A DNA stretch of 62,772 nt, the filler included, from Candidatus Tectimicrobiota bacterium (GTDB lineage: Bacteria; JACPSX01), in NCBI GenBank assembly GCA_016193065.1. It is 9 parts of 9 records of this genome, joined end to end, with 100 filler letters (N's around TTAATTAATTAA, not from the genome) between each part and the next. Parts side by side here need not be neighbours in the genome. Positions count along the whole stretch, not along the records: positions 41,093 to 45,710 come from JACPSX010000275.1; 8 more parts are not named here. The stretch is one strand, 5' to 3'. Within the stretch, counting starts at the first letter, position 1, and the number at the start of each line of letters is the position of its first letter. The notes beneath the pieces were generated by a model. The model did no database searches and had not been told where the DNA came from. It saw only the letters and a program-made list of their open reading frames with translations. The position numbers and the translations under genes were made by a program. This document shows positions 18,729 through 59,059 of this stretch, one piece after another.

Positions 18729-18828
18729 NNNNNNNNNNNNNNNNNNNNNNNNNNNNNNNNNNNNNNNNNNNNTTAATTAATTAANNNNNNNNNNNNNNNN
18801 NNNNNNNNNNNNNNNNNNNNNNNNNNNN
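18729..18828. other. Artificial contig spacer
   Basis: N run with central TTAATTAATTAA (stops in all six frames). Confidence 0.98.
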
Positions 18829-30282: not shown

Positions 30283-30382
30283 NNNNNNNNNNNNNNNNNN
30301 NNNNNNNNNNNNNNNNNNNNNNNNNNTTAATTAATTAANNNNNNNNNNNNNNNNNNNNNNNNNNNNNNNNNNNNNNNNNNNN
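30283..30382. other. Artificial contig spacer
   Basis: N run with TTAATTAATTAA. Confidence 0.98.
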
Positions 30383-36737: not shown

Positions 36738-36837
36738 NNNNNNNNNNNNNNNNNNNNNNNNNNNNNNNNNNNNNNNNNNNNTTAATTAATTAANNNNNNN
36801 NNNNNNNNNNNNNNNNNNNNNNNNNNNNNNNNNNNNN
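36738..36837. other. Artificial contig spacer
   Basis: N run with TTAATTAATTAA. Confidence 0.98.
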
Positions 36838-40992: not shown

Positions 40993-41092
40993 NNNNNNNN
41001 NNNNNNNNNNNNNNNNNNNNNNNNNNNNNNNNNNNNTTAATTAATTAANNNNNNNNNNNNNNNNNNNNNNNNNNNNNNNNNNNNNNNNNNNN
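40993..41092. other. Artificial contig spacer
   Basis: N run with TTAATTAATTAA. Confidence 0.98.
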
Positions 41093-42312
41093 CCCGGTCC
41101 CATGATCGAATCATTGGACCTGGCCTCGCCAGATTCAAGAGAGATCTGCAGCTTGACCAGACCCGTCATCTTCGCCAGGCGCTCTGCGGCCTTGCTCTGG
41201 ATGCGGGTCCCGTTCGTCATGAGCTGGAAAGAGTAGCCCGCCCTGTCAAGAGTTTCGAGAAAGTCGAAGAGCTCCGGGTGCAGCGTCGGCTCGCCCCCGG
41301 TGAAGAGGAAATGGGGTTTGGCGCCCACGTCATTCACCTGGGCCAGAACCCCGGCCAGTTCTCCCCCGGAGAGACGGTACGGATTACGGGTCATCGGGGA
41401 GGCCGCGTAAAGGCAGTGGGTACACGCCAGGTTGCAGGTCTCGGGCGCCACCGGGAAGACCCAGAGCTCCCGCAAAGCCTGGGCGGCGTTTTCGCGAGCC
41501 AGGCGGGTGTGCTGGGTTCTCTGCAGTGGAGCCCGCAAACTTGCCGCGGACTTGCGGGCACTCAAGGTGACGACATAGACCTCCGGGTTACGGGTCCGCC
41601 TGTTTTCGGAAGTTTCCAGAACCTCGATCCCGGTAAATCCAGCCTCAATGAATTGAATCAGAAAAGACTTTTCTGACAAGGCGCCCGCAATTCACTTGAA
41701 CCAGTCCTCCTCATGAAACCGTTCCTCCAGGCTTGGTTCGCGCTGCAGGACGATTTCGGAGCACAGGACGCGACCCCGGGGCTTCAGGACCCGGTGGACT
41801 TCTTCCAGAATCCTCTCTTTCTCCGGTGAAAGGTTGAAGATCCCGTTGCTGACGACCCAGTCCACCGAGCTATCCGGCAAGGGGAGTTCCTCGGCCAGGG
41901 CCTGAACGCAGCGGACATTGGGGAGTCCAAGTCGCCCCAGCCCTGTGACCGCCTTGCGGACCATCGCCAGGGACAGGTCGATGCCGATCACCTTTCCGGA
42001 AGGCCCCACCTTGCGCGCTAATAAGGCGGTATCCAATCCCCCTCCTGCGCCCAGTTCCAGGATGACCTCTCCCGGCGCAAATTCGCCGCAACGGGCCAGG
42101 TAGGAAGAGACTCCGGTGAAGGATTCCGCCAGCATCTCGGGGAAACTTTCAATCTCCCCGGCGGCATAACCTAAATCGAGGGCGTATTGCTTCCCCACCC
42201 TGAACTTATATTTTGAGGTGGAATTGAGCGCCACTTCGGAATACTTGCCGCGCACAAGCTCCCGAATTTCGCCGGACGAAAGCTCCCCGATCATCTTGAT
42301 GGCTGCTTCCAT
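41093..42312 (-). CDS. ArsM-like methyltransferase / radical SAM fusion, predicted selenoprotein (Sec207; 3' truncated)
   Basis: In-frame TGA 41692-41694 reads DWFK-U-IAGAL. Upstream: ILELGAGGG and VVSNGIFNL. Downstream: AGF..IEV..LSARK completes the MTase, then CNLACTHC, FTGGEP and MTNG. GGGAGG RBS before ATG 42312. Confidence 0.85.
41649..41694 (-). promoter_or_regulatory. Bacterial SECIS-like hairpin
   Basis: UCAGAAAA-GUC-UUUUCUGA stem-loop with the loop 23 nt after the UGA; UGAAUUG can pair with downstream CAAUUCA. Confidence 0.75.
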
Positions 42313-42504
42313 GGCACCCCTCCCTCGGGACTCAATGGGATGGTAATTCTCCCAGGGATGATCCAGTTCAAACTGGAGTCGCGGGATAAGAATTGAAGTT
42401 TGAGCAATAGTATACCTCCTGGCCTCAGACCCTGTCGACCCGAATTGCCTGCGCAAAGCACATGCTGTAGGGAATTCAGCTTTAGTGCAAGTTAAAAGTC
42501 CCAT

Positions 42505-42543
42505 GTAAAGCATGCGTAAAGCCCTGGTAAAGATTTTGTAAAG
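42505..42543 (-). promoter_or_regulatory. Four phased direct repeats, putative OmpR-family binding site
   Basis: GTAAAG (+ strand) at 42505, 42516, 42527 and 42538, an exact 11-bp period. Confidence 0.75.
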
Positions 42544-42600
42544 ATGGCGGGCAAGAAAGAGGGGCAACAAAGTGGATCGGGGGCGGCGTTTTTCAGCAGC

Positions 42601-43665
42601 CTAAGCAGGCAGGGTGAACCAGACCCGAGTCTCGCCGGGAGAGCTTTCGGCACCGACTTCTCCACCGTGGGCCTCAATCAGCTCTTTCATGATGGCAAGC
42701 CCGATACCCGCCCCTCCGTGCTCCCGGGAGCGGGACTTCTCGCCACGATAAAATCGTTCGAAGATAAACGGGAGATCATCCCCGGAAATTCCCTCTCCGG
42801 TATTGACGAAATTCATCTTGATTTTTCCCGGCAAGCGCTCGGCCAGGATCCTGACCTTCCCGCCGTGCAACGTGTACTGCCAGGCGTTCTGCAGGAGATT
42901 CCTGAAGACCTGGAACAGCTTCTCTTGATCAGCAAGAATCCGGCCGTCCACCTCCGAGAAGTCCGTTTCGACGACGATCCGCTTTGCAGCAAACATGGTT
43001 TGGAAAGATTCCATCACCTCCCCTGTCAGCTCCTTGAGATCGATTCTGTCGCGGCGGAGCGTCCCCCAGGAAGCGTCGGCCCTGGCCAACTGGAGCAAAT
43101 CCTCGACCAGCTTGGCCAGGCGCAGAGTTTCCTCATGGAGCAACTTGAAGATCTCTTTCGAGGGGGTCATCACCCCGTCGTTCAAGGCTTCCAGATACCC
43201 GCGCATGTTCGTCAACGGGGTGCGAAGCTCGTGGGCGACATCGATCACCATGGTTTTCCGCAGTTTCTCGATCCTCTGCAGGCTGTTTGCCATTCGGTTG
43301 AACGCGGCGGCCAACTGTCCGACCTCGTCCCGGGAGAAAATCCGCACGCGAGCCGTGTACTCCCCCGCGGCGATTTCCCCGGTAATCCCGATCATCTGAG
43401 ATAAAGGGTTTAAGACTTTTCTCGTTAGCAGGAGGTTCAGGATCACGGCCAGGGCCAGGGCAGCCAGGCTTCCCCAAATCAGGGAGCGGTGACTCGCATC
43501 CAGGAACATCTGGTGAACTGCTACCGGCTCGATGTTGTAATCTTTCATCAACGCCATGAAATATTTTGCGGCGAGGTAATCGATGGTGAGCCAGACGGCG
43601 AGGATGACAACCCCGATGACGAGAACATTGATCCCCAATAGCTTCCAGAGAAGGCGTCCTTTCAT
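42601..43665 (-). CDS. Sensor histidine kinase (HAMP-HisKA-HATPase, BaeS-like)
   Basis: DVAHELRTPL, NLLQNA and GAGIGLAI; two TM helices. Confidence 0.94.
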   Translation of the reverse strand: MKGRLLWKLLGINVLVIGVVILAVWLTIDYLAAKYFMALMKDYNIEPVAVHQMFLDASHRSLIWGSLAALALAVILNLLLTRKVLNPLSQMIGITGEIAAGEYTARVRIFSRDEVGQLAAAFNRMANSLQRIEKLRKTMVIDVAHELRTPLTNMRGYLEALNDGVMTPSKEIFKLLHEETLRLAKLVEDLLQLARADASWGTLRRDRIDLKELTGEVMESFQTMFAAKRIVVETDFSEVDGRILADQEKLFQVFRNLLQNAWQYTLHGGKVRILAERLPGKIKMNFVNTGEGISGDDLPFIFERFYRGEKSRSREHGGAGIGLAIMKELIEAHGGEVGAESSPGETRVWFTLPA

Positions 43666-43666
43666 G

Positions 43667-44377
43667 TCACATCCTATCCTCATCCTCGGCAAATCGATAC
43701 CCAAGCCCCCTTACGGTTAAGACGTACCTGGGGCGTGCAGGGTTCTTCTCGATCTTCTGCCGGAGCTTTCCGATGTGCACGTCGATGACGCGATCGACCA
43801 CGGCCTCGCCATGGGGATAGAGGCGCTCCAGGAGCTCCTGCCGGGAAAAGACTCGACCGGGCGAGGCCATGAGGGAGTGGAGGAGCTTGAACTCAAAAAC
43901 GGTGAGCGAGATGGGGCGGCCGTTCAAGGTAACCCTGCGCTTATCGAGGTCGAAGACCAGACCGGCCCGAGACATGGGACCTTGGGGCTTCCCTTCCTCC
44001 GGTCTGGCCCTTCTCAAGATGGCCTTGACCCTGGCCACCAACTCGCGGGGGCTGAAAGGCTTCACCACGTAGTCGTCGGCGCCCAGCGACAACCCGAGAA
44101 CCCGCTCCATCTCTTCCTCCCGGGCCGTCAGGATCAGGATGGGAACGTCGGATGAGCGTCTAAGTTCCCTACAGACTTCCCACCCGTCCACAGTAGGAAT
44201 CATGAGATCGAGAACCACGAAGATCGGGTGGTGCTGATGGGCCAGATCCAAGGCCTGCTGGCCGTCGTAGGCAGCGATCGTTTGGAATCCATCCCGTTCA
44301 AGGTAAAGGGCCACCAGGGTGGATGTCTTCCTGTCGTCCTCGACGATGAGGACGGGACCCAGTGCAGCATGACTCAT
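43667..44377 (-). CDS. OmpR-family response regulator
   Basis: IVEDD, LDLMIP, GADDYVVKPFSPREL and TVRGLGY. Confidence 0.95.
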   Translation of the reverse strand: MSHAALGPVLIVEDDRKTSTLVALYLERDGFQTIAAYDGQQALDLAHQHHPIFVVLDLMIPTVDGWEVCRELRRSSDVPILILTAREEEMERVLGLSLGADDYVVKPFSPRELVARVKAILRRARPEEGKPQGPMSRAGLVFDLDKRRVTLNGRPISLTVFEFKLLHSLMASPGRVFSRQELLERLYPHGEAVVDRVIDVHIGKLRQKIEKNPARPRYVLTVRGLGYRFAEDEDRM

Positions 44378-44396
44378 GGCAGGCTCTTCCGGTCCT

Positions 44397-45077
44397 TCAT
44401 TTCGAGTGCTCCAGCAGAAACCTCTTGGTATGTTGAGGCCCTGCGGCTTCGTCGCTCCGGAGTGAGGCTTTGAGACGTTGCAGGTCTTCAGGAGTGTCCA
44501 CGTCAAACCACGATGAGAGGCAGGCGACCTTGAGCCCCTTTGCCCGAGCCCGTCCGATGGTTTCGGAGAGGACGTGGGCGGTGCTCCGGACCATGCCGTC
44601 GAAGAGTTCCCGGTAAAGCTGACAGAGACCGATCAAGTAATAGCCGCCGTCCTCGCTGGGTCCCAAAACTACGTCAACTTCCGGCTCACATAGGAGACCA
44701 AGAGCACCTTGAAGATAGTGGAGCGGCAGGGTGGGGGTATCGGTGTCGATCACGATCACCCTGCGGTACCCCAGAGCGAAGAGCCGCTTGAAAGCACCCG
44801 CGAGTCTCTCCCCGAGATCGGATCCCTGCTGAGGGATGAAAGTAAAACCGGTACCGGCCAGGGATTCGAAAAAATCCTTCGTATTTTCGGGTGTATAGAC
44901 AATGACCGGGACGGCGTCTTCCAGCCCCTTGACCTGCTCAATTTTATCGAGAAGGAAGCAGCGGTAGAGTTCGGCCGCCTCTTCGTAGGAGTAAGTCGGG
45001 CAGAGGCGGGTTTTCACCTCCCCGGGCCGGGGAACTTTCGCCATCATGGCGACCGCGGCATCAAAGACCCCTGCCAT
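44397..45077 (-). CDS. TIGR04282/DUF2064-like (CofC-like) glycosyltransferase, rSAM/selenodomain-associated
   Basis: AKVPRPGEVKTRL, QQGSDLGERL, TDTP, LGPSEDGGYYLIG and DVDTPEDL. Confidence 0.88.
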   Translation of the reverse strand: MAGVFDAAVAMMAKVPRPGEVKTRLCPTYSYEEAAELYRCFLLDKIEQVKGLEDAVPVIVYTPENTKDFFESLAGTGFTFIPQQGSDLGERLAGAFKRLFALGYRRVIVIDTDTPTLPLHYLQGALGLLCEPEVDVVLGPSEDGGYYLIGLCQLYRELFDGMVRSTAHVLSETIGRARAKGLKVACLSSWFDVDTPEDLQRLKASLRSDEAAGPQHTKRFLLEHSK

Positions 45078-45166
45078 CGCTCTTCTCCCGAACCATATGA
45101 GTATGAATTCTTCCGGCAAAAGAACGCACTTCATTTAAAAGTTACTGGAAAGAGATGAGGGATGCA

Positions 45167-45198
45167 AAAGAAAAAAGGGGGCCCCGCAGGGCTCCCCG
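45167..45198 (-). terminator. Rho-independent terminator after the repeat protein
   Basis: Imperfect GC stem (GGGGAGCCC...GGGCCCCC) followed by TTTTTTCTTTT on the minus strand. Confidence 0.65.
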
Positions 45199-45246
45199 AG
45201 ATCGGAAGTTAGTTGTTTCGGTCCAGCCGTTCCTGATAGAAGTAGC

Positions 45247-45636
45247 TTATCTGGCGCTGCGGACATGCCGGTCCCCGCTCATCTCGTCCTGGACGGCGGG
45301 AACGCTGGGAGAGGCAATCTCGCGGTCCAGGCTTTCCTGCGCGATGCTTCCCAGGACCCGGTTCTCTCTATCCCAAACCACGCTCTTCTCAACCGTGGTG
45401 GAAACCGCCGGGGAATTGATCTCCCGATCCAGACTTGCCTGCGCGATGCTTCCCGGGGCTCGGTTCTGCCGATCCCATACCTCGCTTGCGGGCACGGTGG
45501 TGGAAACCGCCGGGGAATTGATCTCCCGATCCAGACTTGCCTGCGCGATGCTTCCAAACTCTGCCCACGCACTGGCAGCCCCCAGAACCAGGACCGCCGC
45601 TGCAACCAAACCCATCAGACTCTTTCCTGCCTTCAT
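45247..45636 (-). CDS. Secreted hypothetical protein with three tandem repeats at a 31-aa period
   Basis: Signal peptide ending SAWA; GSIAQ[AE]SLDREI[NA]SP x3; AGGAG RBS; terminator. Confidence 0.8.
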   Translation of the reverse strand: MKAGKSLMGLVAAAVLVLGAASAWAEFGSIAQASLDREINSPAVSTTVPASEVWDRQNRAPGSIAQASLDREINSPAVSTTVEKSVVWDRENRVLGSIAQESLDREIASPSVPAVQDEMSGDRHVRSAR

Positions 45637-45710
45637 GACGTTTCTCCTAGTTAATCTGTTTGTCGAGTCTCGCTCTCCCGGCTCTATCGCCGGGTTCCGT
45701 TGCTTCTTGC

Positions 45711-45810
45711 NNNNNNNNNNNNNNNNNNNNNNNNNNNNNNNNNNNNNNNNNNNNTTAATTAATTAANNNNNNNNNNNNNNNNNNNNNNNNNNNNNNNNNN
45801 NNNNNNNNNN
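45711..45810. other. Artificial contig spacer
   Basis: N run with TTAATTAATTAA. Confidence 0.98.
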
Positions 45811-50567: not shown

Positions 50568-50667
50568 NNNNNNNNNNNNNNNNNNNNNNNNNNNNNNNNN
50601 NNNNNNNNNNNTTAATTAATTAANNNNNNNNNNNNNNNNNNNNNNNNNNNNNNNNNNNNNNNNNNNN
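50568..50667. other. Artificial contig spacer
   Basis: N run with TTAATTAATTAA. Confidence 0.98.
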
Positions 50668-54726: not shown

Positions 54727-54826
54727 NNNNNNNNNNNNNNNNNNNNNNNNNNNNNNNNNNNNNNNNNNNNTTAATTAATTAANNNNNNNNNNNNNNNNNN
54801 NNNNNNNNNNNNNNNNNNNNNNNNNN
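54727..54826. other. Artificial contig spacer
   Basis: N run with TTAATTAATTAA. Confidence 0.98.
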
Positions 54827-58959: not shown

Positions 58960-59059
58960 NNNNNNNNNNNNNNNNNNNNNNNNNNNNNNNNNNNNNNNNN
59001 NNNTTAATTAATTAANNNNNNNNNNNNNNNNNNNNNNNNNNNNNNNNNNNNNNNNNNNN
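58960..59059. other. Artificial contig spacer
   Basis: N run with TTAATTAATTAA. Confidence 0.98.

Follow-up and report, generated by a model that had tools for sequence, protein, structure and literature searches.

The stretch of DNA analyzed here (the window; 62,772 nucleotides (nt) at its full length) comes from Candidatus Tectimicrobiota bacterium (GenBank assembly GCA_016193065.1) and is made up of nine contigs with linkers of the form N44-TTAATTAATTAA-N44 in between. Because the contigs are separate, genes that flank a linker are not genome neighbours. The subject of this report lies on the minus strand of the contig at positions 41093-45710 (JACPSX010000275.1). It is most likely a fusion gene whose product joins an ArsM-like methyltransferase, via a linker of about 25 residues, to a radical S-adenosylmethionine (SAM) domain, and whose reading frame contains a TGA codon that is predicted to encode selenocysteine (Sec or U). 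Two open reading frames (ORFs) are found at this locus, 41692..42570 and 41041..41679; they share one frame, and the sole TGA between them is located at 41692-41694. The frame check on the minus strand therefore agrees with the initial annotation of this DNA, in which the two halves had been described as lying in one frame with only a TGA between them. The real start of the gene is the ATG at 42312, which has GGGAGGGG five bases upstream. From this start, read-through gives 406 residues (...EEDWFK-U-IAGA-L(TTG 41679)-SEKSF...SARK, linker, ...ELWVFPVAPET-CNLACTHC...FTGGEP...), with no further stop before 41093, where the gene runs off the contig and its 3' end is missing. Translation up to this position also bears out the earlier statement that WFK-U-IAGAL runs into CNLACTHC and FTGGEP without a stop.

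A TGA occupies the identical column in 27/27 sequences that cover the junction (the window, seven genome loci and 19 metagenome loci), 22 of which are distinct. Two further genome loci stand outside this count, namely L006, a stand-alone radical SAM gene, and L008, which is cut. Locus L009 comes from G005, a genome flagged as unpublished, and the junction count is 26/26 without it. Immediately past the TGA, the amino acids of the four IAGA codons are kept, with Val for the first Ala in one sequence, and each codon is represented by two to four synonymous forms. Such conservation with synonymous change indicates that the codons past the TGA are translated. Moreover, the U residue aligns with Cys224 of CmArsM from Cyanidioschyzon and with the equivalent Cys of CrArsM from Chlamydomonas, and a Cys is present at the U column in 16/16 ArsM-like methyltransferase neighbours of a distant Cys-only family (see below). 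In the available part of the 2026 review PMC13188914, arsenite methyltransferase is given as a selenoprotein with a UxxG motif, which is matched here. The initial annotation had suspected a hidden selenoprotein, had taken C-[IV]-AGA as the site of the last catalytic Cys of ArsM/AS3MT, and had suggested a comparison of homologues at the TGA column. All of this holds: Sec would be placed at the C224-equivalent position of ArsM within a UxxG motif, and the homologues compared carry TGA in the family itself and Cys in the distant methyltransferases. We consider it very probable that the TGA at 41692-41694 is a Sec codon and that the gene encodes one polypeptide of about 550 residues; the union of methyltransferase and radical SAM domain in a single chain, as originally proposed, has likewise found support.

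A second Sec is predicted at the C-terminus of the relatives, as the penultimate residue, and it had been missed by the initial annotation because the copy in the window is cut before it. Complete genome-derived relatives end in ...A-C-x-V-C-L-K-G-S-T, followed by a TGA, one GCN codon and a TAA or TAG. The tail ...CLKGST-TGA-GCN-TAR was observed in 19/20 in-frame C-termini (8/8 genome loci and 11/12 metagenome loci). Metagenome tails with broken frames (L104, L113 and L114) or with ends that come too early (L105, L106 and L112) were left out of the tail count, as was L111, which has KGST-TGA but also an earlier in-frame TAA. In the alignment of the 19 tail sequences, TGAGC is invariant, the next base may be any of the four, the following TA is again invariant, and positions beyond it are free; all four Ala codons occur after the second TGA. 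An invariant TGA-GC with a free third base and a TA behind it is the pattern characteristic of an Ala codon that is translated. In addition, when nine members of the distant Cys-only family are included in the alignment, the second U column corresponds to an invariant Cys (13/13 aligned). With both UGA codons read through, complete relatives have 546-551 amino acids (aa), and the family is most likely a double selenoprotein of this length, a statement that for the copy in the window is carried over from its relatives.

Further examination of the regions downstream of the two codons revealed a conserved hairpin that begins 8-14 nt past both UGAs. For the first, the stem begins 14 nt and the loop G lies 23 nt past the UGA, so that the hairpin with a G-first loop 23 nt after the UGA, reported in the initial annotation, was recovered as a 9-bp stem with a GUC loop. 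When the sequence of the window is folded, the minimum-energy structure contains this hairpin. Across 22 distinct sequences, the pairing of this stem is retained in 99.5% of cells, compared with 30-57% when the partner columns are slid, and among the changes are several to G-U and a single compensatory one (A-U to G-C, in L003). The stronger indication is synonymous-site entropy, which is 0.27 over codons +5 to +12, versus 0.65-0.71 on either side. Past the second UGA, a GC-rich hairpin of 5-8 bp with no U-tract starts 8-12 nt downstream in 17/17 distinct sequences, and the sequence of its stem varies by subfamily. Judged from sequence and predicted pairing, these structures are candidate Sec insertion sequence (SECIS) elements; the data are consistent with that role and do not amount to proof of it.

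The machinery for Sec insertion is found in relatives of this organism. In their genomes (G001-G005), selA, selB and selD are each present above cut-off in 5/5 and a tRNA-Sec gene in 4/5 (4/4, 4/4, 4/4 and 3/4, respectively, without the unpublished G005). The three genes occur in a row, selA-selB-selD, for example at loci L176 and L177. It was also observed that selD has one in-frame TGA in all five relatives, their selenophosphate synthetase being itself a selenoprotein.

The N-terminal half of the fusion has the hallmarks of a class I SAM-dependent methyltransferase. It matches Pfam Methyltransf_31 with 83 bits, and its best sequence match is to ArsM structures (E 2.9e-20). The top Foldseek matches are ArsM/AS3MT structures (6CX6, 4FR0, 5EVJ and 8XT7), which identifies a class I ArsM-type fold; with the full-length model, the top 50 are all methyltransferases. 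The best NCBIfam matches are NF041537, NF047649 and NF041536, followed by NF008823, all of them under cut-off. NF008823 (ArsM) reaches 162.9 bits versus a cut-off of 263, so that membership fails, and NF038099 (AsSugarArsM) reaches 66 bits versus 400. The ArsM-type NCBIfam matches extend to residues 227-267, beyond Sec207, and the AlphaFold model of a relative has a helix and two strands past the Sec, with a predicted local distance difference test (pLDDT) score of 82-91 per 10-residue block; the fold continues for about 50 residues past this position. Since both the homology and a confident model extend past the Sec, the methyltransferase fold is complete only on read-through, just as had been claimed before.

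Cys positions of the methyltransferase are given in CmArsM numbering and were taken from the chain coordinates of the alignments. The As(III)-binding positions of ArsM, C72, C174 and C224, correspond to Val68, Gly157 and Sec207, and each of the 15 family sequences printed retains the segments FTGVS and SNGIFNLS. Sec207 is the sole conserved chalcogen nucleophile of the methyltransferase domain, the other Cys residues being not invariant. Because the equivalents of C72 and C174 are lost, the domain is a relative of ArsM and not a canonical arsenite methyltransferase. The earlier assignment as an ArsM-like methyltransferase thus stands as regards the fold and the C224 equivalent, and fails as regards canonical ArsM (Val for C72, Gly for C174, NF008823 under its cut-off). 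As a separate observation, P0149 and about 40 other profile matches of ~200 aa are ArsM-like entries (~190-210 residues) that end exactly at the Sec column; P0149, whose end is ...SAWFR, likewise lacks the C174 cysteine, its segment reading SNGIFNLSP. Since many ArsM-like entries end at this column, truncated Sec-type relatives of ArsM seem to be common in public protein sets.

The C-terminal half, a canonical CX3CX2C radical SAM domain, belongs to the radical SAM superfamily (PF04055, 58.5 bits versus a cut-off of 29.5), and Pfam detects the Radical_SAM domain alone in it. Its nearest NCBIfam models are SPASM/twitch enzymes, with 50-75 bits versus cut-offs of 265-650. The initial annotation had called this domain ArsS-like, which was not borne out: in a complete relative, TIGR04167 (ArsS) reaches 44.3 bits versus 300 and covers model positions 16-145, that is, the generic core only, and the C-terminal domain is without an NCBIfam match. 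For the last 131 residues, a search of NCBIfam at E values up to 10 returned one chance-level match (carbamate kinase, E 0.12, 11.5 bits). Foldseek with the radical SAM model of a relative (mean pLDDT 69.7) gave BlsE, SuiB, anSME, SkfB and MoaA at TM scores of about 0.45-0.53, and the ESM Atlas returned generic radical SAM clusters only for this part.

The same radical SAM module was also seen in other settings. It stands alone in L006 and P0112, and these forms begin at the true border of the domain, about 70 residues downstream. In P0115 and P0122 (364 aa), it is placed behind a TusA-like domain, not a methyltransferase; these proteins have a CPVLVK-like motif and a ...C-x-V-C-K-R-G-S-[ST] end, and the TusA-like assignment is based on PF01206 (32.6 bits) in P0122 and on the precomputed Pfam list for P0115. 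The distant Cys-only family, with ~30% identity and mostly from metagenome-assembled genomes (MAGs) of Acidobacteriota, has a separate radical SAM gene whose product ends in C-x2-C-x6-C. This gene adjoins one for a full-cysteine ArsM-like methyltransferase, which scores best against the arsinothricin ArsM model (346 bits, cut-off 500), and a DUF2064 gene is often near. Nothing arsenic-specific was found among the neighbours of one locus of this family, L027. In a Thermoanaerobaculia MAG, a full-cysteine ArsM-like methyltransferase and a radical SAM protein of the distant family are encoded in one frame of 692 residues with no TGA (L045:1843-3921), which may reflect a natural fusion of the Cys type or a frameshift in the contig. 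When 1.84 billion representatives were searched with a profile, the matches listed did not include a Cys orthologue covering the full length of the fusion; the search did return unrelated methyltransferase fusions with radical SAM/SPASM domains, in both domain orders.

Table. Features of the fusion gene, its contig and the window, with positions counted along the whole window
Feature	Position	Strand	Basis or remark
Fusion gene, 5' 406 codons of roughly 550	41094..42312	minus	ArsM-like methyltransferase + linker + radical SAM domain
Methyltransferase domain, class I SAM fold, ArsM-like	41545..42312	minus	Pfam, Foldseek, AlphaFold of relative
FTGVSS	42103-42120	minus	Val at C72 position
LELGAGGG	42037-42060	minus	Methyltransferase motif
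SNGIFNLSP	41824-41850	minus	Gly at C174 position
In-frame TGA, predicted Sec at residue 207, WFK-U-IAGA	41692..41694	minus	Conserved column, Cys alignment
SECIS-like hairpin	41657..41677	minus	GUCAGAAAA-GUC-UUUUCUGAU, 9-bp stem, GUC loop
Radical SAM domain, N-terminal part	41094..41475	minus	PF04055, rest missing
CNLACTHC (CX3CX2C)	41413-41436	minus	Cluster motif
FTGGEP (GGEP SAM motif)	41287-41304	minus	SAM motif
Histidine kinase	42601-43704	minus	Pfam HAMP, HisKA, HATPase_c
OmpR-type response regulator	43667-44374	minus	Pfam Response_reg, Trans_reg_C
TIGR04282 (DUF2064) transferase gene	44397..45134	minus	185 bits versus cut-off 134
Linkers	18729-18828, 30283-30382, 36738-36837, 40993-41092, 45711-45810, 50568-50667, 54727-54826, 58960-59059		

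With respect to the gene neighbourhood, the kinase/regulator pair lies between the fusion gene and the TIGR04282 gene, directly upstream of the fusion, and this arrangement is a context of this organism only. In the relatives examined, other genes are found directly upstream of the fusion (a second methyltransferase, a NUDIX hydrolase or TIGR04282); no search aimed at a kinase or regulator was made in them. Among 28 related loci, the cassette includes a second methyltransferase in at least 11, a NUDIX hydrolase in at least 11 and a TIGR04282 transferase in at least 17, and a second radical SAM/SPASM enzyme is encoded directly downstream of the fusion in at least 18/28. Proteins with weak Pfam matches, DoxX-like and GT87-like, occur in at least 11/28 each. 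These counts are lower bounds because many of the loci are short.

Several observations weigh against the reading of the gene as a double selenoprotein fusion. The covariation of the first hairpin is not significant (54/500 shuffles equal it), its stability is unremarkable (fold z -0.6 to -1.5), and the shuffle test of the second hairpin on a plain alignment is flat. Searches of the window with SelA, SelB, SelD and tRNA-Sec of the relatives (tblastn and blastn) returned nothing in its 62.8 kb, and Rfam and ARAGORN found only a tRNA-Trp in the window. The copy in the window stops before the second TGA, and a second Sec is ascribed to it on the basis of its relatives. One metagenome locus, L110 (3470-3520), ends in ...CLKG-RVLGEH-TAA, with neither TGA nor Cys, and another, L111 (890-935), is interrupted by a TAA in frame, nine codons downstream of the putative restart, which is itself the fifth codon past the first TGA; each of the two could represent a loss of Sec, a decaying copy or a contig error. 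Finally, the arrangement of the domains in the AlphaFold model is uncertain (predicted TM score, pTM, of 0.52).

If the TGA were a true stop, the locus would encode a methyltransferase of 206 residues and a TTG-restarted radical SAM protein that carries ~60 leftover methyltransferase residues. Gene callers do annotate two genes, in line with the initial annotation, which had expected standard pipelines to split the fusion: the database holds methyltransferase entries of 206-243 aa that end in ...DWFK and 'radical SAM proteins' of 337 aa that begin with MSEKSF or MAGALSEKSF. The radical SAM module also occurs by itself (L006 and P0112), and a TTG (12 sequences) or ATG (nine) is found five codons past the TGA in 21/27 sequences. 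However, this codon is CTG (five) or CTA (one) in the other 6/27; since it varies, the restart is not conserved, and re-initiation at the nearby TTG, for which the initial annotation had left room, is unlikely. The IAGA codons that precede the restart show the conservation expected of translated ones, a stop here would cut the fold midway through its ArsM-like C-terminal part, and the stand-alone forms start ~70 residues later, at the true domain border. On balance, termination at this codon appears improbable. Read-through with no Sec at all, by near-cognate tRNAs that insert Trp or Cys or under another genetic code, would fit the lack of Sec machinery in the 62.8 kb of the window. Nevertheless, TGA is the commonest stop of the long frames in the window (20/47), so the genetic code is standard and a global recoding of TGA was ruled out; besides, the relatives have complete selA-selB-selD loci and a tRNA-Sec, a hairpin lies at SECIS distance past both UGAs, and both UGAs align with Cys in homologues, all of which make such decoding very improbable. 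As for a sequencing or assembly error, or a pseudogene, the window is derived from a fragmented metagenome bin, and some related metagenome contigs have defects (the in-frame TAA of L111 and the broken frames of L104, L113 and L114). Yet the TGA column is identical in 27/27 sequences from many samples, and amino acids are conserved in both halves. The initial annotation had pointed to TGC, TGT or TGG in the reads as a possible objection; the site is variant-free in the contigs of 4/4 public groundwater runs, which belong to one study and one of which is possibly the source of this DNA. A 6,403-base contig of run X2 covers this region and reaches more than 2 kb past 41093; no RNA data set was among the sequencing runs listed. 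Because the contigs of the four runs agree at the TGA, an assembly error was rejected, and the chance of an error or a pseudogene is close to nil.

A further alternative accepts the fusion and gives it a known chemistry, that of a canonical ArsM joined to ArsS for the production of arsenosugar precursors (dimethylated arsenic (DMAs), then 5'-deoxy-5'-dimethylarsinoyl-adenosine). The best sequence and fold matches of the N-terminal half are indeed ArsM structures, a TIGR04282 gene is near (185 bits versus 134), and ArsS can be a selenoprotein, according to the NCBIfam designation '(seleno)protein' and the part of PMC13188914 available to us. On the other side, TIGR04167 aligns with the generic core only (44 bits versus 300) and the C-terminal domain is without a model match; NF038099 (66 versus 400 bits) and NF008823 (163 versus 263 bits) both fall well below their cut-offs; and every family member shown has Val and Gly in place of C72 and C174. 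We therefore regard the canonical pathway as unlikely, if less so than a stop at the TGA. Taking the evidence together, the gene is most probably a real, unannotated double selenoprotein fusion.

We further compared the fusion with known systems. The NCBIfam families NF041537 (ArsM/AhpD), NF041536 (ArsM/DUF2284) and NF047649 (methyltransferase/UXPK-star), which are attributed to Haft & Tolstoy 2025 (PMC13188914, in its available part), likewise combine an ArsM-like methyltransferase containing a UxxG Sec with a C-terminal partner and have more than one Sec per chain; the UXPK-star family also has a Sec within a few residues of the C-terminus. Here, by contrast, the partner is a radical SAM domain, the tail reads ...GST-U-A-stop, and the cut-offs are far from reached (186.9 versus 510 for NF041537, 164.0 versus 575 for NF041536 and 181.4 versus 460 for NF047649), with matches to the methyltransferase part only. 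ArsM/AS3MT enzymes (4FR0, 4FS8, 5EVJ and 8XT7) share with the fusion the fold, the SAM-binding motifs and the position C224, at which the Sec is placed exactly. They differ in that the fusion has Val at C72, Gly at C174 and no N-terminal Cys pair and stays under the NF008823 cut-off; with the C72 and C174 equivalents and the N-terminal Cys pair gone, binding of As(III) in the manner of ArsM is impossible. ArsS (TIGR04167) is similar in being a radical SAM enzyme with a possible C-terminal Sec and with an ArsM-like methyltransferase and TIGR04282 as partners, whereas the C-terminal domain is another one here, without an NCBIfam match, and only the generic radical SAM core aligns. ArsL, in the available part of bioRxiv 10.1101/2024.02.01.577332, is a radical SAM enzyme of arsinothricin synthesis with CX3CX2C that works with ArsM and has a terminal Cys tail; in the family studied here, the tail C-x2-C-LKGST-U-A likewise ends the chain and has many chalcogen residues, a likeness drawn by description, whereas ArsL is absent among the matches listed. 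SPASM/twitch enzymes (BlsE, SuiB, anSME, SkfB, MoaA, MftC and AhbD) provide the best profile and fold matches of the radical SAM half, but their scores are far under the cut-offs and Pfam detects no SPASM domain here.

ArsM selenoproteins, ArsM-type fusions with multiple Sec residues and the radical SAM selenoproteins ArsS, TrsS and CUAEP-tail are already known (available parts of PMC13188914 and bioRxiv 10.1101/2022.07.06.499078). Full-text literature searches and the available part of the PMC13188914 table yielded no description of a selenoprotein that fuses an ArsM-like to a radical SAM domain, and no NCBIfam model reached its cut-off on either half. Over 100 database entries mis-annotate the family as two genes; their MAGs carry the labels Binatia, Deltaproteobacteria and Acidiferrales, and no entry that covers both halves was present among the matches listed (120 from the word-index search and 150 from the profile search). 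With a correct reading, the few known ArsM-type multi-Sec fusions gain a radical SAM partner and a "U-A-stop" tail, and the nucleophilic and radical types of SAM chemistry meet in a single chain. Both SAM-binding signatures are preserved.

As to function, the TIGR04282 gene nearby makes organo-metalloid chemistry plausible but unproven. Arsenic is a possible substrate, although the greater weight lies against it: two of the three arsenic-binding cysteines of ArsM are gone, no ars resistance genes were found among the neighbours scanned, and the NCBI name of TIGR04282, 'arsenosugar biosynthesis glycosyltransferase', belongs to a model of type hypoth_equivalog and is not assay-based. The single Sec in place of the usual cysteine triad suggests a substrate for which one or two chalcogen ligands suffice. 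In the available part of bioRxiv 10.1101/2024.02.01.577332, the C-terminal RCCLKC tail of ArsL is described as binding As(III) and not a cluster, and all three C-S bonds of SAM are described as being used in arsenic chemistry, by ArsM, ArsS and ArsL. Given the sparse chalcogen ligands and the precedent of ArsL, we propose sequential methyl transfer and radical alkylation on two Sec residues. The enzyme would form carbon-metalloid bonds, with arsenic as the foremost candidate. Its methyltransferase domain would methylate a metalloid bound to Sec207, and the flexible C-terminal Cys/Sec tail would then present the substrate to the radical SAM domain, like the As(III)-binding tail of ArsL. The radical SAM domain would add a SAM-derived radical in an ArsS-like or ArsL-like manner. 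One Sec in the methylase together with a Cys/Sec tail would suit a substrate such as a partly alkylated arsenical. When selenium is lacking, translation would end at residue 206, leaving an incomplete methyltransferase.

A more specific version of this proposal, which we consider doubtful, is that the metalloid (arsenic, though antimony, selenium or tellurium are conceivable) is bridged by Sec207 and the Sec of the tail, methylated in this state, and carried by the tail to the radical SAM domain, with the cassette then leading to a new organo-metalloid metabolite. The tail would move the metalloid once a single Se-metalloid bond remained, and the radical would make the second kind of carbon-metalloid bond. 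The NUDIX hydrolase, the TIGR04282 transferase, the second radical SAM enzyme and the GT87-like protein would process the product, which might be a metabolite of Binatia-like groundwater and soil bacteria whose synthesis is gated by the supply of selenium. The fusion is a concrete candidate for the formation of new C-As (or other C-metalloid) bonds, and, if the proposal is true, the organo-metalloid metabolism of bacteria in groundwater and soil would be linked to selenium availability.

Besides the fusion gene, a scan of the window gave about 60 further candidates for frames joined by a TGA, which are unranked. In addition, an ORF at 45247-45636 on the minus strand (129 residues), which adjoins the TIGR04282 gene on its upstream side, begins like a signal peptide and contains a unit of ~35 residues three times in tandem (…GSIAQASLDREINSPAVSTTV…).

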